Assembly (NCBI GenBank): GCA_050253415.1
Contig: JBFWJC010000001.1
Coordinates: 1,352,679-1,416,678 of the forward strand
Length of the DNA stretch: 64,000 nucleotides
From: Pedobacter sp.
Lineage (GTDB): Bacteria > Desulfobacterota > Desulfuromonadia > Desulfuromonadales > Syntrophotaleaceae
Direction: 5' to 3'
In this document: positions 41,050 through 61,977 of the stretch, one piece after another
Position numbering within the stretch: the stretch's first letter is position 1
Layout: each line of letters starts with the position of its first letter
The notes under the pieces: model-generated
Told to the model about the DNA's origin: nothing
The model's database searches: none
What the model saw: only the letters and a program-made list of their open reading frames with translations
Made by a program: the position numbers and the translations under genes

Positions 41050-42697
41050 TGTCAAGGTAGTTGTCGCCTCAGTCTCATTATGCTGCTTCACTACAAAGGT
41101 CCTCTTCGGGGGACCTTTTTCGGTCGGGATTGAGTCGAACGATCTCAATGGGCTCCCAGTTGCGTGTTTGCCCGGTCCAGCGACCGGGGTTTCTCTGCCG
41201 GGCCTGTTCGTAAACCTCCTTCCGCTTGCTCAACTTGGCGGCTTCTCGCCCATAGTGCCGATCGTCTGGCGTCACGAAGCGGATCTCACTATGCTGATGC
41301 GCGGTGTTGTACCAGTGGACGAATGCATCGACCCACCGTTGAGCTTCAAACTCAGAAGCAAAGGGGCGAGACGGATATTCCGGCCGATACTTCAAAGTAC
41401 GAAACAGTGACTCCGAGAACGGGTTGTCATTGCTGACGCCCGGTCGACTGAAGGAGGGAACGACGCCCAGGCGCTGCAACGTGGCCAGCATGGTCGAGCC
41501 TTTCATCGGGCTACCGTTATCGGAATGCAGCACTAGGCCCTTGGGATCAACCTTGTGGCGGTGAAAGGCTTCCACGCACAGCAACGCACTGTTCTGACCG
41601 CATTCTTTGGAGAAGGCAGTAGCGGCCATAATCTTACGGCTCCAGACATCCAGGATCATGTAGAGATAAAAGAACTGGCCGGTGATCGTGGACCTCAAAT
41701 AGGTGATGTCCCAAGACCACACCTGGCATGGCCCTGTGGCCACTTTCTTCCGAGGGCGGCGATGCGTGGCCGGCCGGCAGCGTTCCCGGTGGGCCAGTTG
41801 GTTCGCCTGCCGCAGAATCCGGTAAAAGGACGATTCCGACGCCACATATCGGCCTTCATCGGCCAGGCGGGGGACGATCTGCTTGGGAGACAGTTCCCGA
41901 TATATTGGTGAATTGGCAACCGACAGGACCTCCTGCCGCTCAACTGGCGTCAGCTTGTTGGCCGGTGCAGTTACTGGGCCATGATGCCGGTCCTCGTCAT
42001 CCTCCTGACGGGCCCAGCGCTGAATGGTGCGGGCAGTCAGTCCCAGCATCTGGGCGGCCGGTTTCAACCGGGCTCCCTGGCACATGGCCTCATCGACCAG
42101 TTCCAAGGCCTGCTGCCGCTCTAACGGTCGGTGTCGTCGCCCTCGTCCCCCCAGATTTCCTGTGCTTTTTTTTTGAGAACCAGCAACGCTGCGGTTTCGG
42201 CCAACGCCTTGTCCTTGCGCCTCAGTTCCTTCTCCAACTCCTGGATACGTTTGCTCTCGGCACGCTTAGCTTGTTTGGGCTCAAGGCCAACGAGCATCTG
42301 ATCACGCCACTGCTGAAGTTGGGCGTCATGCAATCCCCGGCTGCGCAAAAAGGCGCCGAACTCTTCTTCAGAAAGCGATGCCGCTTCCAGAACGGCCGCC
42401 AGCTTCTCTTCGGCACTCCAGTCTTGTGGTCGTTTCATATTGGACAGCCTCTGCATGGATTCGGTAAAGGATGGCGGCTCGGCATTGACAGCAATACCAA
42501 GCGTATCAGCTTCACTCACCCATCGGTAGAGCGAACTGCGGGAGACCCCTATCTCCTCTGCCAATGAGACTGGACTGGGCCCATCAGGGTCGGTCATTTT
42601 CTGAATCATTAGTGCTCTGAACGCTTTGGAATACATACGCCTCCTGACTGCCCCTCAATTCTTTTGAGTTCAGTTAGAGGCGACAACTATGCTGACA
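41050..42697 (-). mobile_element. Apparently intact IS3-family element (orfA 42636-42121, orfB ending 41078)
   Basis: IRs TGTCAAGGTAGTTGTCGCCTC / TGTCAGCATAGTTGTCGCCTC; A9G slippery site at 42174-42165; WSWDITY, HSDNG, SESLFRTLK. Confidence 0.95.
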
Positions 42698-44780: not shown

Positions 44781-45509
44781 AAAATAGAATGATCTTTAGA
44801 ATCGGTGAAATCCAAAGTCACTCCAGGGAAGGTAATTTTTGGCGTCTATGGCTTTTTAGTAGGCCGTTCCTGGTCTGTAAAAGGACTCCCAGGTATGTTC
44901 AATCAAGGAGGCCATATCTTCCGCTGCAGGCGGTATGTAATCTGCCTCTGGGGCAGGGAACGGTAGCCAAAATAAGCATGTATCCAGACGAGGTCACATG
45001 CCGATTAGCCGATTTTTGCGCAATGGGCCGGTGAGCTTTTTGGGGCCGGTGTGGGTAAACTTCTGGTAGGTTGCGACCTCCTGTCGCCCCCAGGGGAGAA
45101 TATGCTCCTCGACCAACGGCTTTTCTGGCCTTGTCCTCTTGCCCATAACCCTATCAATAGAGGGTCCTGAAATCAAGGGTTAAAATTTAGGAAAGTATTG
45201 CAAAACCAAATACTTAGACTAACTATTTTGTTAGGCCGATAACCCGCTACTCCCCCTCCAAAAAAAATCGAATATCTCAAACGCCCTTGTGCAGATGTCC
45301 CAATAATGACAGATCCACCATCCAATAAGACTGCTCGCTCTCTTCACGTTGATTTTTCAAACTCGTTCACATTCTGGTTAATCATGCTGATGCCCCAATT
45401 GTTGTTTTTTTCCAGGATTGTCCATGGTGGTCATAATTATCTAATCGTTTCTTGGGGGAGGGTGGGGCGAAGGCTTTACTATCTTCCCTGAAAACTCACC
45501 TTAAAAGTA

Positions 45510-46586
45510 CGGATCTATCCACCAAACAAAGGCTGCGGTATAGCAACACCGCCATAAATGGTTCGCCGAAGTTGGGTACCAACCGCTTGATTGAGAAGTA
45601 TTCCGAGTTGCTCCAACACCGGCTTCGCCTGCATCACGATCGTTGACAATCCGTTTCGCTTTTTTTCCACTGGGTCGGGGTTATTCCAGCGAAACACGAC
45701 CTCGCTGAGATACCGCGGCAAGTGGCGATGGCTGACAAAATGAAAGACGCCCTGCTTGGCCCTTTCGAGAATCGCATTGAAGGATTCGGCCGTGTTGACG
45801 TGAACTTTCCCTCGGGCAAATTCCTTGATGCCGTGGTGGACCCGCTCATGTCCCGCGAACTGTTTGCCGATCGCCACATAAGGTTGCAACTGGTCTGTCA
45901 TTATCCAAGAATCGGGCGCGACCACCTGTTTGACATAGGGTGCCAGGACCGCGTAGCTGTCACCCGGGATCATGCTGGCTTGGGCTGGGCCTTTGCGGCT
46001 AACGGCCACGTGGATACAGGCTTTCTTGGTGGATTTTCCCCGGGCATGTTTCACTCCCTGTTGGAACCTCGGTTTTCCTCCAAGGTATTTTTCGTCGAGT
46101 TCAACGATACCGTCCAGCAGTCCCAGGGAAACCGCATGCCCTGCCATCATGGCCCGAATGCCATGGCCAATTTTCCAGGCGGTCTTCTGAGTGACCCCAA
46201 GCCACTTGGCCAAGAAAACCGAAGAAACGCCTTTGCTGGAGTTGATCAGGAAATACATAGCCAGCAGCCAGGTCCGAAGCGGCAGCTTGGTACTATGCAT
46301 GGGCGTCTTTGTGGTCACTGTAAACTGCCCTTTGCAGCCGCTGCATTCATACAGTCCGGGCCAAGCAGAGGTTCCTGAGAGTGACCAGGACTTCAGGCAC
46401 CCACAGTGAGGACAGACCCGACCATGGGGCCAAACGACTTTCTCGAGATACTTCCGACAGGCCCCCTCGTTTGGAAACTGTTTGCGAAACTGTTTGAGAT
46501 TCATGGAAATCCCCCTTTCTGGAGGATATTCCATCAACACTGTGACGGGTTATGTCACAGCCACCTTCTTTTGGTGGATAGATCCG
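45510..46586 (-). mobile_element. Intact IS1595-family element (transposase 46540-45515) with 8-bp target duplication
   Basis: 17-bp IR CGGATCTATCCACCAAA; TSD TAAAAGTA at 45502-45509 and 46587-46594; Zn-ribbon CPHC/CSGC, VELDEKY, MTDQ, NTAESF. Confidence 0.97.
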
Positions 46587-46946: not shown

Positions 46947-47234
46947 CTACGAAACTAGGGGCGATTCACTTTCATTTTCACACAAAAAAACAACCTCGTT
47001 GGCCCCTTCAGGGTGGGGTTTTACATGAACATGTAGAAACGCTTCATAAGATGGATAGATACCCATCGTGCTGTACGCGTCAATACCCTTGTCCTTCACA
47101 TTCAGGTCCGTGCGCCAGCAAGTAACCACCTGCCCAGTGTGAAAAATAACACCGTCGAGAACCCTTCCAGTCCCACTGATGCCTGATTGGTCGATTTTCC
47201 TGACCAAGGTGAAAAGTTTCGGATTAGTATTCAT
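46947..47234 (-). CDS. Small uncharacterised protein, fifth gene of the CBASS operon
   Basis: ATG 11 nt after the effector stop with GGAAGG RBS; FTLVRKIDQSGISGTGRVLDGVIF..GQVV..W motif. Confidence 0.8.
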   Translation of the reverse strand: MNTNPKLFTLVRKIDQSGISGTGRVLDGVIFHTGQVVTCWRTDLNVKDKGIDAYSTMGIYPSYEAFLHVHVKPHPEGANEVVFLCENESESPLVS

Positions 47235-48472: not shown

Positions 48473-49009
48473 TTACAATAATTTCAGCAATGATATCATT
48501 CTCGAACGTCTATGCCCCTCCCACATCCGCATCTCGGATGTGCCCACTATCAGGAAAATGAGACTATCGCTGTCAACAATGTCATCTCTTAGCTTCCGTT
48601 TCCAGTTGGTATCGTCGATGCTTGACGGCGATGGATATGGTTCCGGGTGAGTATGCCACTCGCCCAGATACGTGCAGGTATGACGGCTTATTGCCCACTC
48701 CCTGTCAATTATTTTCTGATGTTCTTTCTTCTTCCTAAAGAAAGTGGTTCTCGTGCCCCTGTCACCCGACATTGGGAAAGAAATCTTGTCAATCACGATA
48801 TCTTGGGAGTCAATAATGTAGCGTCCCAACATGACGCCTCCGCCTTCCGGTTTGTGACGGTCATTTTGGACATAGCTGTGGATGGACGCAATTACCTCGG
48901 CTGGAAGCTTGATTCGGCCGCCGTTTGAACGGGCAAATACCAGGTCATTGCTCAGTTTCAAGGTATTGGCAGACAGGACAGTCTCCTCGTGAATAATCGG
49001 CAATTTCAA
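48473..49009 (-). CDS. cap3: CBASS JAB/MPN isopeptidase
   Basis: EGGGVMLGR, YLGEWHTHPE..PSPS..D; start uncertain. Confidence 0.92.
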   Translation of the reverse strand: MKLPIIHEETVLSANTLKLSNDLVFARSNGGRIKLPAEVIASIHSYVQNDRHKPEGGGVMLGRYIIDSQDIVIDKISFPMSGDRGTRTTFFRKKKEHQKIIDREWAISRHTCTYLGEWHTHPEPYPSPSSIDDTNWKRKLRDDIVDSDSLIFLIVGTSEMRMWEGHRRSRMISLLKLL

Positions 49010-50681: not shown

Positions 50682-51711
50682 GCGCAGATGCGCTCGCCGT
50701 GGCTATGGCGCGGCTCTTTTTTTCGCCGGTGTCTGGTTTTTCAGGAACAGGGAAGTCGTCCCCAAAGACCTTTCTCAGGGTTTCGCATGCCTTCACCGGG
50801 TCTACTTCACCGATTGCCGAGTCAAGAGCCTCCAGCAGACTTTCCAATTTCTCCTTCAGATTGGCCATCTGGTTGTCTGTCATCTTTTCGAACAATTCGG
50901 AATAGGGTTCGACTGGCAGGTACACCTTCAGTCTGTTTCCGAAGTTGTTCAGCATGCTGTTTACAACCCCTCGAATCGCTTGCAGGTCGTCGTACTTGCT
51001 CGTGTTCGCAACGGTATCCGTCGTCTTGTTTGGGGAAAACCATTCGTATACCGCGATGGTCAGGCCTATTCCGATAGGCGCGGCATTACCATTGGTAGAG
51101 AATTTGTGGTCCTTCCACCTTTTCAGATACCGTATCACCCTGACAAATTGCTTTTTGTCGTCGCCGGAATATCTGTTTCCAACAATGTCCGCCAATCCTT
51201 TAGGGTCTGATACTTCCCATGATTTATTGTTATCTGAAGAATTCAACTTTCCCTTTGCCAGACACTTCTTGCCGTCAGAGTTGCAAGACTCGTCGGAATA
51301 AATTGCAAGATCGACATGATACTGTGGTTCATCACCTTTCTGGTAAAAAACGGTTACACATGGCCTCCGCATGTCGACTTTTTTGGTATGGCCGTTCAAC
51401 GCTTCATACACCCATTTCTTGACTGCCACCGGGTCTGGATAGTCGTCTTTTGAGACATTGAAGGATACGCCGACATCAATATCATAATCACTGTCCAAAG
51501 GTATAACGCCGGTGCCCATTTTATAGCTTCCCTGGTCAAAAGTCTGGTACGTGGGAACCGGTTCATTCTTCTCCTCGAAAATCGCCTTCAGACGCGATTT
51601 TAGCTTATCAAGAACAATGTCCCTCTTTTCCCTTAGGGTCTGGTTCTCGTCGAATCGTTTGAGTTTAATTGCTTCATGAAAGGATTCGAAATGCTTTTGA
51701 ACGTCGGCCAT
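50674..51711 (-). CDS. cGAS/DncV-like nucleotidyltransferase (CD-NTase)
   Basis: QGSYKMGTG...DYDIDV, PCVTV, HVDLAIY, RYLKRWKD, FGDDFP; GGAGG RBS. Confidence 0.95.
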   Translation of the reverse strand: MADVQKHFESFHEAIKLKRFDENQTLREKRDIVLDKLKSRLKAIFEEKNEPVPTYQTFDQGSYKMGTGVIPLDSDYDIDVGVSFNVSKDDYPDPVAVKKWVYEALNGHTKKVDMRRPCVTVFYQKGDEPQYHVDLAIYSDESCNSDGKKCLAKGKLNSSDNNKSWEVSDPKGLADIVGNRYSGDDKKQFVRVIRYLKRWKDHKFSTNGNAAPIGIGLTIAVYEWFSPNKTTDTVANTSKYDDLQAIRGVVNSMLNNFGNRLKVYLPVEPYSELFEKMTDNQMANLKEKLESLLEALDSAIGEVDPVKACETLRKVFGDDFPVPEKPDTGEKKSRAIATASASAHA

Positions 51712-51728
51712 ACGACCTCCTTTTGGAA

Positions 51729-51782
51729 GTACAACATTTTGGGATGTTCCAGCAATATAGGTACGACATATTGTGTTGTCAA
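51729..51782 (-). promoter_or_regulatory. CBASS sigma70 promoter overlapped by tandem NrdR-box-like operators
   Basis: Minus strand TTGACA(51782-51777)-17 nt-TATATT(51759-51754); 16-bp boxes GTACAACATTTTGGGA (51729-51744) and GTACGACATATTGTGT (51761-51776). Confidence 0.75.
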
Positions 51783-52599
51783 GAGAATGTTAAGATTTTT
51801 TTACGCCCACTGTTGATTGGCTGTGCATAGTTGCTGTTGCGTTACCCGACGTCTGAGAAGACACGAGTTTCAAAACACAGAAACCCAGCTCGGATCGCCA
51901 GGCGGGGTTTTCTCTTCCATGGGATAGTTATGTCCCTTGACCCGGTGCCTTTAAATGGGTGACACAGGGGGCTAGGAATGATCGGACATAACGAAATGGA
52001 ACCAAGACGACTGGTTTCAGGCATTTGCGATAGAATTTTTCGGCTAAAATGGTCGAAGCCTTTGCATCAGAGGAGGGTAGGGCGATGGCCAAATATGAAT
52101 CCAAACTTATACCCAAAGGCTAGGATTCGACAGATGGTCAAGCCCTGCCGGATGGTAGAATCCGGTTTAAAATGACCTCCTGAAAGAGAGCTAAAAAGTT
52201 GGCTCTGGCAGAGGTTCAGGTCGTATGGGAAGCGCCAATCACCAAAAGATTAAATTCAGACCATTAAATCCTACCCGCATTTCACCCTGCAAGAATGTAT
52301 TGAATCAGCCAATAGAAGATTTTTTCCGCTTACGGGTGATCGGGGGCCGCATAAGATTCGGCGCGAACTCAACCGCAATGGCTCCTGTTGTTCCTCCCGG
52401 CCCGGGGGATGAGCCCTCATCCACCAAAAAAGTCACTACACAGTCGGTCGCAGACTCTTTACTTCTGGCGCCAGGATTTTTTCAGTGCCTGGAGCGCTGC
52501 CTGTTCCTTGACTGATCGTTGAAGGTCATCTGTAGCCGACTGAAATGAAAGCAACAGGACGATGCAAAAATGGGGCGCCTCCGAAACCATCAACCAGTG

Positions 52600-52900
52600 G
52601 GGCGTTTTGGATTGCCAGTAGGACGGACAGTTTTAACGCCATCTACACTGACGACATAAACACCGATTGAGGCAAAAGTGCTACGGTGTGGACCGTCGTT
52701 ACTTCCAAACCGGGTGGGCATTGAGCAACGGCCAGCCATCGTCAAATCACGCAGTCGCTTCGGCGATTGGGAGGGCGGCTTGATGGTAGGTCCGGCAATC
52801 CGGTGCTCCTCGCTTCCCATGTGGAACGTAAAAAAACGCTACCAGAAGGTCTCGCTGCTTAAGAATTACAGGGCTGAAACTTTCAATACCGCAGTGATCC
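52600..52900 (+). mobile_element. IS30 transposase remnant
   Basis: LPNRVGIEQRPAIVKSRSRFGDWEG fragment with frameshifted flanks. Confidence 0.7.
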
Positions 52901-54018
52901 ATTTCTATCACCGATTGCCGGCAGCAATGCGATTGACGCTCATTGTAGGCCATAGTCGGTTGCAATTCTATTTTCTCAAGGAGGCGGATTTTATGCGAAT
53001 TGATGAGGCCGAAGGGAACTGGGCAACTAAATGCCTCAAGCATCGACCACGAAAGGGTATCAAGGGCCGGAGCCCTTTACCCTGGGGGAGGACCTATGTG
53101 GTTCACGTGCAAATTGAATCCGGTGACGGTACACAGCCGTCATTTTAATTAATTGGAAAAAATAATTTAAGCCACTACTGGGTGCCGATAGTGCGTTTAT
53201 TCCAGACAGAAGGCGACAATGGGCCTACAAAAAGATATTGAAAACTTCGGTACTCAAGCATCTTGATAGCTTTTTCCATTATTCTCTTCATAGCTTCTTA
53301 CCTAATTTTTTACGACCATCAATCTTGAATCTTTTCAATAATTTCCTCGACAATCAACAAAAAATCAATTCTGGCAAAGAAAATTTACATCGTCTGTGAT
53401 TGCTTATTTGGGCTATTCCTAACAACTTTGTTTGCCATCAATAACCTTAACATGAAAAGCTCGTACAGGTAATTTAGTGAGTGTTTGTACCGTAACAATA
53501 AACACAAAAAATACAATGAATGATAATGATTAGAGTTTACTGTATTGTAATAGAAAAATATGCAATAAAAAACCAATATCAGTTGTACTATAAAGTAACA
53601 ATTCAATACGTCTATTTCATGGTTTAATTAATAAAAAAACCAAACAATACACATCCTATTGACAAAAGGAAAGTAGTTTTGCGATCATACAATCATAAAA
53701 AGAATTTTTATCCCTTAAATAAGATATATGTAATCACAATACAGGATGGTCAGGTGAAACTTTTCACCCACTAAACACGTGGGAGCCCCGTCGATGAACA
53801 CCAACAACAACGACCATTCTACCGTGCATGTTCAACCGATTTCCGAACGGAAAGAACATGGTCAGCATCAAAAGTCACCTCTACACGAAGGCCCCAACTT
53901 TCGCGTATCTGCCTTTTCGCTTTGGCACCTGCCGAAACCCCTCTCTGATTTTGCGACACTGACCACTGATGTTTTTACCGACCCGCGATGTAACCGGACA
54001 AAAATAAAAGGAGCCGCC

Positions 54019-54612
54019 ATGAATACATGTAATTTCAGAGAATTAGGTGACGTCTGCCTGGATATTTTGACCATCAAGCCGCAGGCGCCGGCCACAAAGC
54101 GTTTGCCACCCACATACCTGTTTGTGGCCGTCGATCATGCCAGTCGCTGGGCTTACGGGGAGTTGCACCAAAGCAGGTCGGCCCTTTTTGTTGACTTTCT
54201 TGAAAATCTGGCCAAAAAAGCACCATTCAGAATACATACGGTTTTCACGACCTACGACCGACCCTTCCATGAACTTTTCGTCAACGGCAGAGCGACCATC
54301 AATGACGTAAACGAAACATTCAACCAAGCCTGTGTAAGACTCGGCATTGTTCATCGATCAACCCCGCCTTGGAGGCCAGTTGATGCCGGTGTGTTGGAGC
54401 GATTCCATCGCAGCATTGGGGAAGGCTTGAAAACGGCAGGAGGGATTTCACCCAAGGATTTTGCGCCCACCTTGCTGCGCTACCTTGAGCAATACAATGA
54501 GCACCTTCCCCAGCTAGTTTTGGGCCACATAACGCCCATTCAGGCTGTAAGGAGAGGTATTGCCTCTGCAACAAATGTGGGGGACAACAACCCTCTTAGC
54601 ATAAAAAGGTGA
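54019..54612 (+). CDS. IS481-like integrase-core-only ORF, catalytically degenerate
   Basis: YLFVAVDHASRWAY, PFRIHTVFT, ERFHRSI, YNEHLPQ..LGHITP; TDNG motif replaced by TTYD; AAGGAG RBS before MNTCNF. Confidence 0.65.
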   Translation: MNTCNFRELGDVCLDILTIKPQAPATKRLPPTYLFVAVDHASRWAYGELHQSRSALFVDFLENLAKKAPFRIHTVFTTYDRPFHELFVNGRATINDVNETFNQACVRLGIVHRSTPPWRPVDAGVLERFHRSIGEGLKTAGGISPKDFAPTLLRYLEQYNEHLPQLVLGHITPIQAVRRGIASATNVGDNNPLSIKR

Positions 54613-54616
54613 AACC

Positions 54617-54745
54617 ATGCGAAGTAATCGACCGCAAAAAAACTCGGTGATCCGGGTAGAACCGATTCGATCGCTGGACGCCATCGAACGCATCAAGGCC
54701 AATCTGGCCCCGCGCCCGCGCGGGCGGCCACTGCCGCCCCACTGA
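54617..54745 (+). pseudogene. Tyrosine recombinase N-terminal fragment
   Basis: MRSNRPQKNSVIRVEPIRSLDAIERIKANL, typical VEPIR integrase N-terminus, then stop. Confidence 0.6.
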
Positions 54746-55009
54746 AGGAGGAAGTATGAAAAAGAAAGATGTCGGCAAAAACAGTCGCAGCAGGGCGACG
54801 ATCAAAGCGTCAAGAGCGCAGGTTACAAACGGTCACAAGGCCCCGCCGGCGATCAAGCGCTCGGCGTGTACACTGACTCCCCAACAAAAGACGACGTGGT
54901 TGTTGTGCCTGTGGGGTGGCGAGTTCAAGTTTTCTATTGAAGAAGCGGATTACCCTTTGGCACGGCCGGGGAAAAGGACCTTGTTCTGAATCTCAACAAA
55001 CTCTCCAAT

Positions 55010-55320
55010 GCTAGCATCCGCAAAGCGGCGCAAGAGTGGCGCGCGAGGTTCCGGAAGGCCTGGGTCGACGCCGAGGTAAAGACTATTTCGGCTGGATTCA
55101 GGTGCGTGACTTCGGCAGGTTGGGTCGCGTCAGTCACATCCCTAGTCCTGAAGTCGACCGGGAAATTCACGGGATGTTCATCGGCGAAGAGGCTCTGTAC
55201 TACGGATCTGGGCTGGCGACCCGAGGTGGTCGAGATTCGGAAGCAATACCCGCTGTCCCTGAATCTTGCCTTGACAGTGGCAGAGGCGCTGGGCATCGCG
55301 CATCCCAGAGGTTTCCTGGA
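55010..55320 (+). pseudogene. Degenerate second tnsA
   Basis: EGLGRRRGKDYFGWIQVRDF...REIH, frameshift, WRPEVVEIRKQYPL...AEALGIAHP parallels the intact TnsA N-terminus. Confidence 0.75.
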
Positions 55321-55562
55321 AAATTGCGGTGTCAGGGTGCTTGGGGACGGTCCAAGTGAAGTTTGATGATGTCTGGCAAGCTTCCATGGTCTTATCCCGG
55401 AGGGAATGGATATAAGTCAGGGGCCTGGGGCCTATGGATGATAAAGCAGCAATATAAAAGCCGTTATTGCGATTTTCGCAATTCCAAAACGGAAGTCCTT
55501 TCATCAAATAGCGAATGAGAAGAAAGAAAAAGCCATTAGCAGGTTCGGGAAAGGAGGACAGT

Positions 55563-56375
55563 ATGTCTCCACGAGCGCGCATTTCAGACAAAGGCAGAGC
55601 CCGTAAGGGGCGAGGCAAGGGCCATGGCAGAAATTACGAGCCGTGGATCAAAGTTGGCGACTACCCCGCAAATGTTGGATTCGGGGACAGGGTAAACGGT
55701 TTAATCAGCGGTCGTCCCACCCATACACTGTCGAGGTTGGAATTTGGTGAATATTTAACGTTGGAGAGGTGGCAGGATGTTGTGGATATCCGTGAAAACT
55801 ATCCTCTGCCCCCCGGGGAAACAAAAATCGTGGCAGACAGGCTTGGTTTGCGACATCCCGTTGAAAGAACAACCAAACAGCCCAAGACCTTAACCATCGA
55901 CCTTTACCTAGATATACTTGATAATGAAGGTTTTTTAATGCACGAGGCCTGGGATCTTAAAAAGAAAGCGCATCTGGCGCTGGCCTCGTATATGCGCCAA
56001 ATCGATATTAAGGAGGCGTATCTTGCCATTTACGACACCCCCTACCATATTGCTACTGAAAATGAAATCGACCCGATCCTCATCAAGAATTATTTTCTAT
56101 TACGGCGATATACCGGTGAATACTTTTCTGCCCAGCATTTGGCCCAGATCAACCATCTGGAGAAACTCCTTTGGCAAGAATTAAAAGATTCCAGGGAACC
56201 CGCTGCGCATGTCTGTACCCGTATAGATATCCAGCAGGGCTATCGTCAGGGTACGTGCCTGAGCACGGTTTACTACCTGATTTATCATCGATACTGGCAG
56301 GTTGATCTCTATGAGGAAATCAGGCCGGACGAAGGGCCTTTGAAGCTCTATCGTTTAAAAGCCGTAGAGGATTGA
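55563..56375 (+). CDS. tnsA: Tn7-like TnsA endonuclease
   Basis: GRGKGHGRNYEPWIKV.D, RPTHTLSRLE, DIRENYPL, LGLRHP, LTID; AAGGAGG RBS. Confidence 0.92.
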   Translation: MSPRARISDKGRARKGRGKGHGRNYEPWIKVGDYPANVGFGDRVNGLISGRPTHTLSRLEFGEYLTLERWQDVVDIRENYPLPPGETKIVADRLGLRHPVERTTKQPKTLTIDLYLDILDNEGFLMHEAWDLKKKAHLALASYMRQIDIKEAYLAIYDTPYHIATENEIDPILIKNYFLLRRYTGEYFSAQHLAQINHLEKLLWQELKDSREPAAHVCTRIDIQQGYRQGTCLSTVYYLIYHRYWQVDLYEEIRPDEGPLKLYRLKAVED

Positions 56376-56397
56376 AAGCCTCCCAGGGGGATGGGAA

Positions 56398-58578
56398 ATG
56401 AATATCGCGATTGGCAATATCCTGGAGTGGCTCGATCCGGAGTTTCCGGACGAGGACCGGGCCCCATCTTCAGAAGAAACGATCTCCCGTGAGCGCGTTT
56501 TGTGGGGTGATGCAGATGTAATTGTATCCATCCCCATGTCGAGGCCGCACAAGGGGGCAGGTGATGGTATGCCGGTGGTGCACCTGAGGAGCAAACTGGA
56601 GCGTGCCCTAGAGGAAAATCGACTGTGTATCAATCGTGATTTTGATCCTTATGGTCGCTTGTTAATTCTCCCCTCCGAATACAAAGAGAAACACGCTGAG
56701 CATCAGAAAAAAGCATGGAACGCGATCCAAGACATCGCGAAAAAGGAACCCGGAATTTACGACCCGGGGACTCGCGGTCGCTTGGTACGACAGGCAGCAC
56801 ATAAGCATAAGGTGTCCCGCCCCTACATTTATAAGCAATTACGGCGATATTGGGTGGCCGGGAATATACTCGAGGCTCTGCTTCCTGATTTCTTCCACTG
56901 CGGGCACATCCCGCAGGGGCAGGAGTTTAAACATTCGAAGAATTCATTGGAAACCAAAATTAAGATTGTCAAGGGAATTAAAAAATTCGGGGGCGGTGGA
57001 AAGACAGGCCAGAACTTAAATGATGACATTTGCGAAGAGTATTTTTCAGAGAAAGATGTTTTAACGGAAAGACGACTGATATATCCGACGGCACCATCTG
57101 TCCATGTCACAAATTACTATAGGAAGCTATTAAGAGATCACGATCTCAAGTGGTATATAATCAATCAATTCGGAATCAATAAATTCAAGAAGCTTTTTAG
57201 ACCGTTATTAAAAACATCCCAAACCTATGTGTCCGGTCCTGCGGATACTTTTCAAATTGATCATACTGTAGCAGATATTTATTTGGTTAATAAAGACGAT
57301 CGCTTATTAATAATAGGCCGTCCTATGGTCTATATCGTTATCGATGTTTTCTCCCGCTTAATTACGGGAATCTTTGTCGGATTAGAAGGTCCGAGCTGGG
57401 AAGGCGGCGCCAGTCGGGCTTTGCTCAATGCATTTTCCCCGAAGTTGCCCTTTTTGCAGGAACTCGGAATGGATGAATTGTTTTGGGATGTCTTGGGGGA
57501 AAGGCTGGACGAAAGTACTTGGCCGGCTGACTGTATACCCGCCAGGGTTTTGGGCGATTTTGAAATCGTTTCGCAAAAAGCTGATGCACCGATAATGCCG
57601 CTCGGCATTACTTTTTCCAATACGCCTTCGCGCCAACCTTGGGCGAAAGGGATTGTCGAGGCGCAATTCCGCGTATCTAAAGATTACTTCCTGGATTGGG
57701 CACCTGGAGCGGTCGATGAGTGGAGGAAGGAGGTGGAGGGCCGAGATTATAAATATGATGCCATTTTCACTTTGGAGGAATTTACAAAAATACTTTTACT
57801 GTACGTTCTTCTTTGGAATGATCACCTTCTTCCAAAATACAAGCTGGACAAGGCAATGATCCGGGACCATGTGCAACCTAGACCGAAAGAGCTTTGGCGG
57901 TGGGGGTGGGCCAATCTCTGCGGCCTTCCTAATCAGCGTAGTAGGGAGGTGTTGGAGCTTGCTTTGCTGCCACGGAAGACGGGGCGGGTAACCCAGTTTG
58001 GGCTTGAATTTGGGAAAAAAACTTACGTGCCTCAATGTGAGGATGCCGAGGAAATTCTCCTTCGGGCTTCCTACTTTAATCCATATGAAGTGGAGGTTTC
58101 CTACGATTCACGGTCTGCCGAGTGCGTTCTCATGCATGACCCCGAAAAGCGGCGGGTAGTGCGATGCCTGCTGAATCTTCCAAAGGAACGTAGTTGTGTC
58201 GGGGTCAACGAAGAGGAAACCCGGGTTCTCGATGCAGCTAAAAGTAAACTGATTAACGCTGCCGCTGCGGGGGAACGGCAAAGCCGGGTGGATAAGAGGC
58301 AGGTTGGGAGGCGGATAACCGAAGAAGCTATGGCGGCCCACGAGGAGGCACGGATACTGGGGCCGGATACGACAAAGCGAAGGCGTGGCGATGTAGCCAA
58401 AAATCGTGCCGACGAGGTACGGACCCGGGCCAGTGAAAAACATGGTGAACAGGGCGAACAGCAAGCTAGGCCGGATATTCCCGATGCAAAAGATGAAGAT
58501 AAGAAGTCCGGGGATGCAGGGATTTTCGATCTCATGTACGGGAAGGGGGCGGATCATGAAGAACCTCGAAAGCATTGA
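56398..58578 (+). CDS. tnsB: Tn7-like TnsB DDE transposase
   Basis: LRRYW, GP...FQIDHTVADIYLV, GRP.VYIVIDVFSRLITG, GPSW, KGIVE..F. Confidence 0.93.
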   Translation: MNIAIGNILEWLDPEFPDEDRAPSSEETISRERVLWGDADVIVSIPMSRPHKGAGDGMPVVHLRSKLERALEENRLCINRDFDPYGRLLILPSEYKEKHAEHQKKAWNAIQDIAKKEPGIYDPGTRGRLVRQAAHKHKVSRPYIYKQLRRYWVAGNILEALLPDFFHCGHIPQGQEFKHSKNSLETKIKIVKGIKKFGGGGKTGQNLNDDICEEYFSEKDVLTERRLIYPTAPSVHVTNYYRKLLRDHDLKWYIINQFGINKFKKLFRPLLKTSQTYVSGPADTFQIDHTVADIYLVNKDDRLLIIGRPMVYIVIDVFSRLITGIFVGLEGPSWEGGASRALLNAFSPKLPFLQELGMDELFWDVLGERLDESTWPADCIPARVLGDFEIVSQKADAPIMPLGITFSNTPSRQPWAKGIVEAQFRVSKDYFLDWAPGAVDEWRKEVEGRDYKYDAIFTLEEFTKILLLYVLLWNDHLLPKYKLDKAMIRDHVQPRPKELWRWGWANLCGLPNQRSREVLELALLPRKTGRVTQFGLEFGKKTYVPQCEDAEEILLRASYFNPYEVEVSYDSRSAECVLMHDPEKRRVVRCLLNLPKERSCVGVNEEETRVLDAAKSKLINAAAAGERQSRVDKRQVGRRITEEAMAAHEEARILGPDTTKRRRGDVAKNRADEVRTRASEKHGEQGEQQARPDIPDAKDEDKKSGDAGIFDLMYGKGADHEEPRKH

Positions 58579-60067
58579 CGCGGCTGAAACTTTCGGATCC
58601 CGGGGACCCATTTTCGGCAATAAGGTTCCGGCAAGGTATTTTCCATCGGCGGATCCCATGTTCAGGCACAATCCGCTTATCGAAGCGTTACCGCCAATTA
58701 TGGCGGTCGATGAGTTTACCAAAGCGGCCAGTTGGTACCCGGCTTATGATGAAGAGGAAAGGAAGAAGCCGTTAGAGTACCGCCTTATCGCGAGCGAAAG
58801 GATTAAAACACTCGTGGAGCCCCTGCCGCCATTTGTGAGGTTTTATTATTCATTGTGTGGTCAGCTCCGCTTTGGATATTTGAGCCGAAACCCTCCACGA
58901 CCGGCTTATAAAAAACAGTTGGAGGAAAGTTTTCCCGATAAAGAGTTCTCTGAGGACCCGTACCGCATGCCCGTCTTGCAGAATGCGGCATCCGGGTCAT
59001 GTGTCCTCGGTATCAGCGGTGTCGGCAAGACCACTTTAATCGAAACGGTCCTGAAGCTGATTCCTCAAGTCATTATTCACAGTGAATATGAAAACGAGCA
59101 ATTTACACAGCAGCAACTTGTCTGGGCATATGTGTGTTGCTTCCGCGGGAAAACTTTGAAAAATATCGCTTTCCAGTTTTTGTATCAGGTAGAGCTGTTA
59201 CTTGGCTACCCATGTTTTAGCAATTGTCATGGAAAAAGGTGGGCTGAAAAAGATATTTTGATGGAAATGGCAAGGGTTGCCCGGACGGTAAAGCTGGGAG
59301 CCCTTGTAGTTGATGAAGTGCAAAATTTGCAATACGGAGAGTCCAAAACAGGGCAACAGAGGAGGGGGTATTCCTATCCCCCATCGCTGTTGACGGCTTT
59401 GGTAACATTTTCGAACCTATTTAGGGTGCCAATCGTTTTTGTCGGAACACCGGAAACCGGGCCTCTCATAGGGAAAAGCATGCCTTTATCAAGGAGGGCA
59501 ACGCAAGGTGGCAAAATAGAGGTAGATCGTTTGCGCCCAGGACGGGTATGGGATCAATTTTATGAAACCTTATCCCGTTATCAATTTCAAAAAAAACCGA
59601 TGCAGGATAATGATGAAATCAAAAAGGCCTTTTATGAAGAGACCCAAGGGATCATAGGTGCCCTGGTGAGCCTGTTTACGGCTGTGCAATGGGAAGCCAT
59701 CTATTCAGGGGTGGAAGCGATATCCGAAAAACTAATCCGTGAGGTGGCGAGAACCCATTTAGGACCGTTGTATCCCTGGATCAGGCTTATAAAGGCCGGG
59801 AAAGAAAAATTTTTTTCAACGCCACAGGTATTGGAGTCCGATCTGTCCCATGAAGCTTTTGTTGCGGCCAGTAAAAGAAACACTAGATCCGCAAAAGACC
59901 AAAATGGGGGCGAACGAGCGAATGAAAGGGGAAAAAGTAATTCGGCCGGTCGGGAGAATGTGCTCACTGCAAGTAAAGATGCTCGCGCAAAAAAAAGGAA
60001 AAAAGCGAAGGAAAATTACGAAAAATTAAAAAGAAGGGGGCTGATTGCGGACGGAGAACGGGAATAA
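58556..60067 (+). CDS. tnsC: Tn7-like TnsC AAA+ ATPase
   Basis: NPLIEALPP, Walker A GISGVGKT, Walker B LVVDEVQ, VPIVFVGT. Confidence 0.94.
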   Translation: MKNLESIDAAETFGSRGPIFGNKVPARYFPSADPMFRHNPLIEALPPIMAVDEFTKAASWYPAYDEEERKKPLEYRLIASERIKTLVEPLPPFVRFYYSLCGQLRFGYLSRNPPRPAYKKQLEESFPDKEFSEDPYRMPVLQNAASGSCVLGISGVGKTTLIETVLKLIPQVIIHSEYENEQFTQQQLVWAYVCCFRGKTLKNIAFQFLYQVELLLGYPCFSNCHGKRWAEKDILMEMARVARTVKLGALVVDEVQNLQYGESKTGQQRRGYSYPPSLLTALVTFSNLFRVPIVFVGTPETGPLIGKSMPLSRRATQGGKIEVDRLRPGRVWDQFYETLSRYQFQKKPMQDNDEIKKAFYEETQGIIGALVSLFTAVQWEAIYSGVEAISEKLIREVARTHLGPLYPWIRLIKAGKEKFFSTPQVLESDLSHEAFVAASKRNTRSAKDQNGGERANERGKSNSAGRENVLTASKDARAKKRKKAKENYEKLKRRGLIADGERE

Positions 60068-60093
60068 AACAGAAGGTAGGAGGTGTTTAGGTT

Positions 60094-61977
60094 ATGTTGA
60101 TTTTTTTCCCGAGGCTTCTTCCCGATGAATTATTTTTCAGTGTCTGCGGTCGATATCACAGAGATCTAGATGCTGGTAATGACCAAAGGACTTCACGCGA
60201 GTTATTCGGTCTCCCTATTGCCAACTTCGGCTGGGATTTCCCAAGCCGGCTTCAGGCCTTTGTTGATCAACTGCCGGGAGATCCTCCTTTAACCGCTGAA
60301 AAACTGATTGAAGAAAATACCATGTTTCCTCTTTATCGACCATTTATTACCGAAGAGAGGGCAACCAGGGTTGTTTCTGGAATGGTTGGTACAACTGGCG
60401 CTCATCGATACAACCGATGTCTTGTCGGTATGATCAATGGAAAATTTCCCCTTGTAAAATATTTAAGGTGTTGCCCCGATTGCATTGCGGAGGATGAGAG
60501 GACCTACAGGACATCCTATTGGCACAGAAGCCATCAAGTGCACGGTGTCTTTGTCTGCCACAAACATGGAAGCCCATTGCTTGAAACCAAAGTTTCTACC
60601 TTACATAAAACTGGAGAGAGCCTTTTTAAGCCCCTGAATAAGGAATTAATCAATAAACCACTGTTTTCCGAGAAATTCGAAAAGACAGAATATGAAAATC
60701 TAAAAAAATTGTCGGACTCGATATGTTGGATACTAAATAACCCGATAAAAATAATTGGGAGAAAAAACTTATGCAAACGTTATAAAAGATTCTTATTGGA
60801 CAATAATCTTTTCTTGCGAAGAAGCAGGATATCCATAGCAAAAATAATGGATAATATTCAATGTGTGTTTGGAGAAAAAATACTCAAATTGTTGTGTTGT
60901 AATTTTGAAAAAAATTTAAAATATCCTTGGATTTCCAATCTTTTTTTTAACAATAACTTTGGACCCAATCCCCTCTATCATCTCCTGCTAATTCAGTCTT
61001 TAAATCTAGACCTTAAAGAGGTTTTTCTGGCTGATTACACGGATGAAACGGTTTCTTTTGCCGATGGATTCCCTTTTGGCAAAGGTCCCTGGCCTTGTCT
61101 GAATCCGGCCTCAAATCATTATAAAAAGAATGTTGTTATTGATTGTAGAATTGAAAGAAATACAGGCGATGGTAGGCCGATCGCTATCTTTACCTGCGAC
61201 TGCGGATATGCTTATGAAAGAATAGGTCCTGATAAAGCGAAAAAAGACCGATTTGAAAAATATCGCGTAGTTCGTTACGGTGAGGTCTTCGAAGACGAAC
61301 TTTTAAGGTTGGTTGAAGGTGAAGGGAAAAAGCATAAAGAGGTCGCAGAAATTCTCGGTGTTCATAAAAGCTATGTAGGAAACATGCTCAAAAAAATAAA
61401 GGAAAGGCCATCGAAAGAGGAACAGTTGAAGAAAGAACTTGCCGAATTAGAACAGAAGCGTAATGAGTGGAGTAGGGCCATCAAAAAAAATCCGTCCCTT
61501 GGACGCACTGAGTTGGCCTGCAAATATCCTGGACTAGTGTCTTATTTTTACAGGAAAGACAGGGATTGGTTTAAAAATAATCAGCCGCCGATAAAATCGA
61601 CATCTGCCCATACCGTCGACTGGAAATTAAGAGATGAACAATTGTCATCGGGAATCAATGATGCAGTCGCTAATATAAAAGGAATGCTTCCTTTAGCCCG
61701 TGCCTCGATTTCCAGGATCGCCCAACTTTTAAATTCTGAGACTATTTTGAAATCAAACAGGCGTCTTAACAAACTTCCAAAAACAAAAAAGTTATTAGAG
61801 GAAGCTTCAGAAAGCGTGGACGATTTCCAGATCAGGAGGTTGTATTTTTTCGCAAATGAATTAAAAAAGAATGGTGATCTAAGTCGTTTCAGGCTTTTGC
61901 GGGCCTCTGGCCTTGAATACAATAAATGTTCAAAACGTGTTCAGGAAGTAATTGATCGTTTACTTAATGGAGGATGA
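60094..61977 (+). CDS. tnsD: TnsD (TniQ-family) target-site selector
   Basis: FFP..LPDEL..S...RY, CCPDC, WHRSHQ..GV.VC.KH, PWPCLN...F.C.CG, VDW..RD. Confidence 0.93.
   Translation: MLIFFPRLLPDELFFSVCGRYHRDLDAGNDQRTSRELFGLPIANFGWDFPSRLQAFVDQLPGDPPLTAEKLIEENTMFPLYRPFITEERATRVVSGMVGTTGAHRYNRCLVGMINGKFPLVKYLRCCPDCIAEDERTYRTSYWHRSHQVHGVFVCHKHGSPLLETKVSTLHKTGESLFKPLNKELINKPLFSEKFEKTEYENLKKLSDSICWILNNPIKIIGRKNLCKRYKRFLLDNNLFLRRSRISIAKIMDNIQCVFGEKILKLLCCNFEKNLKYPWISNLFFNNNFGPNPLYHLLLIQSLNLDLKEVFLADYTDETVSFADGFPFGKGPWPCLNPASNHYKKNVVIDCRIERNTGDGRPIAIFTCDCGYAYERIGPDKAKKDRFEKYRVVRYGEVFEDELLRLVEGEGKKHKEVAEILGVHKSYVGNMLKKIKERPSKEEQLKKELAELEQKRNEWSRAIKKNPSLGRTELACKYPGLVSYFYRKDRDWFKNNQPPIKSTSAHTVDWKLRDEQLSSGINDAVANIKGMLPLARASISRIAQLLNSETILKSNRRLNKLPKTKKLLEEASESVDDFQIRRLYFFANELKKNGDLSRFRLLRASGLEYNKCSKRVQEVIDRLLNGG

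Follow-up and report, generated by a model that had tools for sequence, protein, structure and literature searches.

The promoter described here has its closest known counterparts in the operators of ribonucleotide reductase (RNR) genes, which are repressed by NrdR. NrdR carrying both dATP and ATP attaches to a pair of boxes, whereas the ATP-only form is an inactive 12-mer (bioRxiv 10.1101/2025.03.28.645925; PMC9110341). Two boxes are needed, and repression in vivo has been reported with spacers of 15-17 bp (PMC12051234). Recognition by NrdR is reported to be conserved across bacteria. During lytic infection of the pneumococcus, operons with NrdR boxes were upregulated by 10 min and were later the most upregulated of the host genes (PMC6755750). 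For E. coli K-12 and P. aeruginosa PAO1, the preprint places correctly spaced pairs at RNR operons only, and the mechanism was proposed to be RNR-limited (bioRxiv 10.1101/2025.03.28.645925).

CapW/BrxR, CapH with CapP and CapK with CapS are described as repressing the transcription of lethal defence operons until stress lifts the repression; their genes stand next to the operon, and what they sense is single-stranded DNA (PMC13373217). The control proposed here would resemble these, but NrdR, unlike the Cap controllers, is a core chromosomal gene, located on another contig, and a sensor of dATP/ATP. It would also resemble the control of the V. cholerae CBASS by HapR, in that a host global regulator sets CBASS transcription; there the signal is cell density, the effect is enhancement, and nucleotide or folate state acts on cyclase activity, without an operator (PMC10653837). 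With the RNR operators (S. coelicolor nrdRJ, E. coli nrdHIEF, and nrdJ and nrdD of the present host), the locus shares a pair of imperfect palindromes, each of 16 bp and separated by three helical turns, an overlap with a sigma70 promoter (predicted here) and an intact nrdR in the host; it differs from them in what lies downstream, an operon for abortive infection that is carried by a mobile island. The preliminary description knew of no such wiring, and no account of NrdR controlling a defence operon was found in the full-text literature searched, a search that was thin on subscription papers and was made without the 2005 regulon paper, RegPrecise and two collections in which sites of this kind could be present, the box tables of the preprint and the 935 box sequences of PMC9110341. 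Known parts thus appear to be joined in an undescribed way, as a putative NrdR-type operator on a CBASS promoter.

The window analysed is the whole stretch of 64,000 nucleotides, and its relevant features are collected in Table 1. The operon has the gene content of a complete type II CBASS, with four uninterrupted genes, and anti-phage activity is predicted for it. The E1-E2 protein, the JAB peptidase and the HNH-SAVED effector are presumably of the Cap2, Cap3 and Cap5 types, respectively. Compared with type II CBASS carrying E1-E2, JAB and HNH-SAVED, the proteins are ordinary, and the novelty lies in the promoter. The operon may have a fifth gene in the 95-aa ORF directly after the effector (46947-47234), which matched nothing in Pfam or PADLOC.

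Table 1. Features of the CBASS operon, its promoter and the neighbouring Tn7-like operon (positions are those of the window)
Feature	Coordinates	Strand	Basis or remark
-35 hexamer TTGACA, predicted sigma70 promoter	51777..51782	-	promoter prediction
NrdR-type box 1 (putative)	51761..51776	.	16/17 bases of the -35/-10 spacer; 13.9 bits
-10 hexamer TATATT	51754..51759	-	promoter prediction
NrdR-type box 2 (putative)	51729..51744	.	11.6 bits; just past the predicted transcription start (inferred)
Ribosome-binding site AGGAGG	51716..51721	-	read off the sequence
CD-NTase (oligonucleotide cyclase), 345 aa	50674..51711	-	PADLOC PDLC00795, E 2.7e-132; Pfam DncV-like_NTFase
E1-E2 protein, 578 aa	48945..50681	-	PADLOC PDLC00837, E 2.9e-164
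JAB peptidase	48473..49009	-	PADLOC PDLC00896, E 3.6e-52
HNH-SAVED endonuclease effector, 404 aa	47246..48460	-	PADLOC PDLC00739 and SAVED_HNH model; Pfam SAVED
Tn7-like operon (TnsA, TnsB, AAA ATPase, TniQ/TnsD)	55515..61977	+	context

The preliminary description had placed a minus-strand promoter (TTGACA-17-TATATT) before the CD-NTase ribosome-binding site, one box in its -35/-10 spacer, and a second box exactly 32 bp away, between the predicted start site and the ribosome-binding site. All three were confirmed at the positions given in Table 1. On the minus strand the order is TTGACA, box 1, one base, TATATT, nine bases, box 2, AGGAGG and the ATG start codon of the CD-NTase at 51711. Between 51650 and 52300 a single sigma70-like promoter is predicted, with a consensus agreement of 11/12, and its predicted core is overlapped by both boxes. 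At the equivalent position, a -35 element of the form TTGACA or TTGACG is found in three of four aligned homologous promoters. The operator with both boxes spans 48 bp, and the spacer between the boxes is 16 bp, inside the repressing range of 15-17 bp given in PMC12051234. The geometry resembles that of the host nrdJ promoter, where box 1 begins two bases past TTGACA.

A palindromic weight matrix was built from 56 regions upstream of RNR genes in relatives, with the host's own genome excluded (RNR loci were gathered from 40 relatives, and two loci whose start was not found were left out of the training). Six core positions, chosen from the known consensus and from the RNR matches of the host itself, served as the seed for its register, which is identical to that used by the published regular expression. 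A first, unseeded palindromic motif search had settled one base out of register and scored both CBASS boxes negative, and the matrix was retrained with the seed. Scoring of this kind had been suggested in the preliminary description, and it favours the boxes: together they reach 25.5 bits. Genome-wide, pairs of at least this score at 31-33 bp occur only four times, every one at 32 bp: at nrdD (32.2 bits), at a small HTH gene/pilM site (30.7), at nrdJ (29.4) and at the CBASS promoter; the fifth pair reaches 18.4 bits. Among the upstream regions of long ORFs (n=4,330) the CBASS pair ranks third, behind nrdD and nrdJ, and the fourth scores 13.5 bits. Just two pairs reach 25.5 bits at the other 283 spacings within 17-300 bp, and 0.007 pairs at the CBASS score are expected by chance genome-wide at 31-33 bp. 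None of 10,000 dinucleotide shuffles of the 200 bp upstream attained that score (maximum 16.1). Compared with RNR operators, which have a median of 31.0 bits, the pair is on the weak side: only 5 of 58 score lower. A strict two-box pattern matches the genome twice, at nrdD and at the CBASS promoter; both CBASS boxes also match the regular expression of PMC12051234 and contain the conserved core C-x-W-x-A-W-x-W-x-G, and the published loose expression has 59 matches in the host genome. The tandem spacing also stood, the 32 bp between box starts being the same as in the nrdD and nrdJ pairs.

The regulator invoked by the preliminary description is indeed encoded by the host. An intact nrdR lies on contig C8, a different contig from that of the CBASS; its product scores 216.5 bits on TIGR00244, above the family cut-off, aligns with solved NrdR structures and retains D15, R17, R12, R26-29 and R37, the DNA contacts named in PMC9110341. 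The RNR set of the host consists of one class II-type RNR and one nrdD.

Conservation of the boxes in homologous promoters varied from one homologue to another. In L094 (91% protein identity), box 1 stands straight after TTGACG and box 2 lies 32 bp further (25.2 bits); core bases are kept at 12/12 positions, linker bases at 3/10 and upstream bases at 8/30, and none of the seven changes within the boxes affects a core position (p about 0.02). In L065 (Geobacteraceae, 73%), boxes of 5.3 and 14.2 bits stand as far from the start codon as those of the host and keep the promoter register one base off. The boxes are degenerate in L100 (70%); L095 (79%) has kept the promoter hexamers and lost both boxes, and L099 (91%) differs in its upstream region, where there is an IrrE/ImmA gene and a pair is missing. 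The predicted operator, kept in some homologues and degenerate or lost in others, is therefore gained or lost quickly, and it may be swapped for other regulators. Taken together, the matrix score, the presence of nrdR, the spacing and some conservation favour the proposal, and the reading of the two boxes as an NrdR-type tandem operator on the CBASS promoter is therefore well supported by the sequence comparisons.

It was also claimed that no CapW or CapH/CapP regulator neighbours the operon. For WYL and IrrE/ImmA proteins this held by profile search, with no match near the operon (the genome has one WYL match, at a distance of ~163 kb, and one Peptidase_M78 match, located on contig C7); for small CapH-like HTH proteins it held by eye only, none being recognised among the ORFs at 51780-55520. 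The CBASS lies 3.8 kb from the divergent Tn7-like operon and adjoins an IS1595 element. No clear Tn7 ends came out of a search for repeats, which also did not link the boxes to transposon-end repeats. The record of Pelobacter sp. UBA6812 contains 8.8 kb of the CBASS island, 95% identical and with an unchanged promoter; the island is therefore mobile, and this copy is not independent evidence for the operator. The IS1595-family transposase is at 45515-46540, and its inverted repeats lie at 45508 and 46588; the surroundings of the CBASS contain further transposase-like ORFs and remnants (41078-42636 and 52678-54612). Among public RNA runs, the best share of sequence words, in comparison with the contigs, was 0.10.

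It was of interest to determine how often such pairs occur at other CD-NTase genes. Loci were picked by homology alone, fragments without a gene start being excluded, and the 78 obtained form 50 clusters at 85% identity. A cluster was counted if it had a pair of at least 18 bits at 31-33 bp within 2 kb upstream, a threshold set after the scores had been seen; for many of the loci the upstream DNA at hand is shorter than 2 kb. Six of the 50 clusters, from three named phyla, have a pair (one is the discovery locus), and 44 have none. The six are the host's own group, L065, L075 (Thermoanaerobaculia), L107, L218 and an Acinetobacter group; in L107 the pair precedes a DUF2188 gene, and in the Acinetobacter group an HTH-IrrE gene, each heading the CBASS operon. 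As controls, downstream regions gave a pair in 1 of 50 clusters, 30 of 33 other spacing triplets gave none, and 189 of 200 column-shuffled matrices gave none, with one giving five and none six. The pair-bearing loci fall in separated branches of a quick CD-NTase tree. An nrdR above the cut-off is present in four of five tested pair-bearing host genomes (the L107 and L218 hosts lie outside this count); the Geobacteraceae assembly has an N-terminal nrdR fragment only. In 301 genomes of the class, 27 SMODS loci were scored and none has a pair within 1.5 kb (some of these loci may not be first genes); four plasmid CBASS loci have none either, and a search of 401 genomes of the phylum added only four homologues. 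Near misses in L102 (18.5 and 10.8 bits at 30 bp) and L101 (15.8 and 11.2 bits at 45 bp), and single boxes in L106 and L120, were left uncounted. Across phyla, the predicted NrdR-type operator thus recurs, though only in a minority of the defence operons. With or without a pair, DUF2188 and IrrE/ImmA genes are found repeatedly just before these CBASS operons (L107:3500-3733, L304:5875-6192, L099:70-582).

A second Acinetobacter CBASS, with a SMODS cyclase and a Cap4-SAVED effector, has different pairs (20-33 bits) and is headed by an HTH-IrrE gene 53% identical to that of the first group; more distant HTH-IrrE loci that were inspected had no pairs. When 121 Acinetobacter genomes were searched with the strict pattern, 40 pairs were obtained, from 30 of the genomes (reversed control, 12), and a few of their neighbours were assigned by identical match. 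These pairs lie at the two kinds of CBASS operon (5) or precede RexA (1), an integrase-type module (7) or a NUDIX gene (4); eight lie between rhodanese and DUF1289 genes, one is on a small contig with a replication-type gene, eight are inside genes (mostly with low scores), five are at other places and one is left unassigned. None of the 40 is at nrdA, where pairs at 32 bp score 18-20 bits on the RNR matrix, lower than the CBASS-linked pairs. The boxes of the Acinetobacter CBASS lie ~35 bp upstream of the nearest -35 element. The RexA abortive-infection gene directly follows a 25-bit pair (L271:601-647). The integrase-type module has three genes (~230, 780 and 650 or more aa, with a weak phage-integrase match), stands behind pairs of 32-34 bits at different Acinetobacter loci (L283, L293, L296, L299, L300, L278) and is possibly an NrdR-timed mobile element. 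The NUDIX pairs (L282, L285, L288) are near-perfect, with up to 40 bits; rhodanese (UPF0176)/DUF1289 loci are L284, L289, L292, L295, L297 and L298. One Acinetobacter CBASS (L088:2264-3205) is preceded by a comM-like gene that is truncated, and by short direct repeats resembling a Tn7-family end, and lies ~3.5 kb from the chromosomal nrdR.

In the host itself, the 30.7-bit pair (G000:C4:34165-34212) precedes a 64-aa HTH gene and a pilM-like operon (labels by eye), and this site reaches at least 18 bits in 9 of 25 genomes, the host's own included (L465, L468-L492). Among the matches listed for other genomes of the class, 46 distinct strict pairs were inspected; labelled by eye, the genes behind them are mostly RNR genes, are parA-like in five cases and in no case are recognisable as defence genes. 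The parA/soj-like loci, labelled by eye, are from Desulfuromonadia relatives (L167, L176, L178, L179, L307). From the parA-like and pilM-like pairs, the predicted NrdR regulon seems wider in this lineage, and a reading in terms of growth or replication therefore stays alive. NrdR may also control type IV pilus genes, through the pilM-like operon; type IV pili are common phage receptors. Among 301 Gammaproteobacteria, 21 strict pairs were found in 19 genomes; eight of the 18 new loci precede RNR genes and none a defence family recognised by Pfam. Viral contigs contain at least 120 strict pairs at 32 bp versus 5 at 37 bp, and among the viral matches listed (L340-L419) 78 of 80 are distinct and one is a tandem repeat. 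Genes after the viral pairs include those for terminase, portal, DNA ligase and a toxin-antitoxin pair.

On these grounds NrdR is likely to bind the predicted site and to repress the CBASS operon. The explanation preferred here, to which as a whole we give about an even chance, is that this repression is lifted when dATP falls with phage replication. With ample dATP, a dATP/ATP-loaded NrdR tetramer would occupy both boxes, covering the -35/-10 spacer and the start site, and expression of the CD-NTase, E1-E2, JAB and HNH-SAVED genes would stay low. A replicating phage would draw on the dNTP pool, dATP would decrease relative to ATP, NrdR would be released, and the operon would be induced together with nrdJ and nrdD. 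The induced CBASS would be armed; killing would still require its own protein-level trigger. The present analysis supplies the sites, their spacing and promoter overlap, the intact nrdR, the selective conservation and the recurrence, and the literature supplies NrdR binding, nucleotide sensing and phage induction of the regulon. That phage infection, through a drain on dATP, is the selected trigger seems to us evenly balanced overall; the published precedent for this step is a single one, from a different species. It counts against the preferred explanation that some phages degrade the DNA of the host and thereby increase dNTP pools, so that NrdR would stay bound.

The phage-trigger step competes with growth or replication stress, because pairs precede parA-like and pilM-like genes in this lineage. 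What NrdR gauges in repressing the CBASS might be growth, the demand for replication or replication stress rather than phage, with the defence expressed in fast-replicating or stressed cells and otherwise kept low to limit toxicity. The parA/soj-like pairs (4 of 30 loci and one more), the HTH-pilM-like operon, the Acinetobacter pairs before NUDIX and rhodanese/DUF1289 genes, and the precedent of quorum sensing as host-state control of CBASS (PMC10653837) point this way. Pairs before unrelated defence operons and RexA, however, fit an infection alarm, as does the strong phage induction of the regulon (PMC6755750). We regard the growth gauge as rather less likely than not, and the two readings are compatible, not exclusive.

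The remaining accounts are less probable. The pair could serve the mobile island, either as a decoy that titrates NrdR and raises the host's dNTP supply, or as the decaying leftover of a captured promoter; the excess of viral pairs at 32 bp, the integrase-type module behind 7 of the 40 Acinetobacter pairs (one by identical match) and the box losses in L095 and L100 speak for this reading. Yet the boxes sit exactly on the promoter core, in a register kept in L094 and one base off in L065, one low-copy site would titrate little, and no RNR-promoter homology beyond the motifs was noticed on reading, without alignment, so that service to the island is improbable. Binding by another regulator with a similar palindrome is very improbable: it would suit the low nrdA scores in Acinetobacter, the absence of strict pairs at that gene, and boxes so far upstream of the -35 element in an operon with its own HTH-IrrE gene, but the motif was learned from RNR promoters, sequence and three-turn spacing both match, and no such regulator was found in the window by WYL and IrrE/ImmA profiles or among the ORFs read by eye. 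A chance match within an AT-rich promoter, to which the 59 matches of the loose expression might be taken to point, is close to excluded by the shuffles, the genome-wide expectation and the selective conservation.

A broader and more tentative possibility, somewhat short of an even chance, is that of an unrecognised second NrdR regulon on mobile DNA, in which defence operons (CBASS of several cyclase clades, and RexAB), integrase modules and phages would repeatedly have acquired pairs; the dATP/ATP sensor would then be a general infection alarm that arms abortive infection and is also read or titrated by phages. The NrdR-CBASS claim is cheap to test, because the site is of 48 bp, NrdR recognition is reportedly conserved and Acinetobacter examples are available. 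How a lethal defence without a neighbouring regulator stays quiet until infection is an open question, and at this locus the cell's nucleotide sensor probably helps to switch CBASS on. A CBASS operator under NrdR would break the recent proposal that paired-box repression is confined to RNR, and a host nucleotide sensor would represent a new input to defence, distinct from the single-stranded-DNA and quorum-sensing controls.
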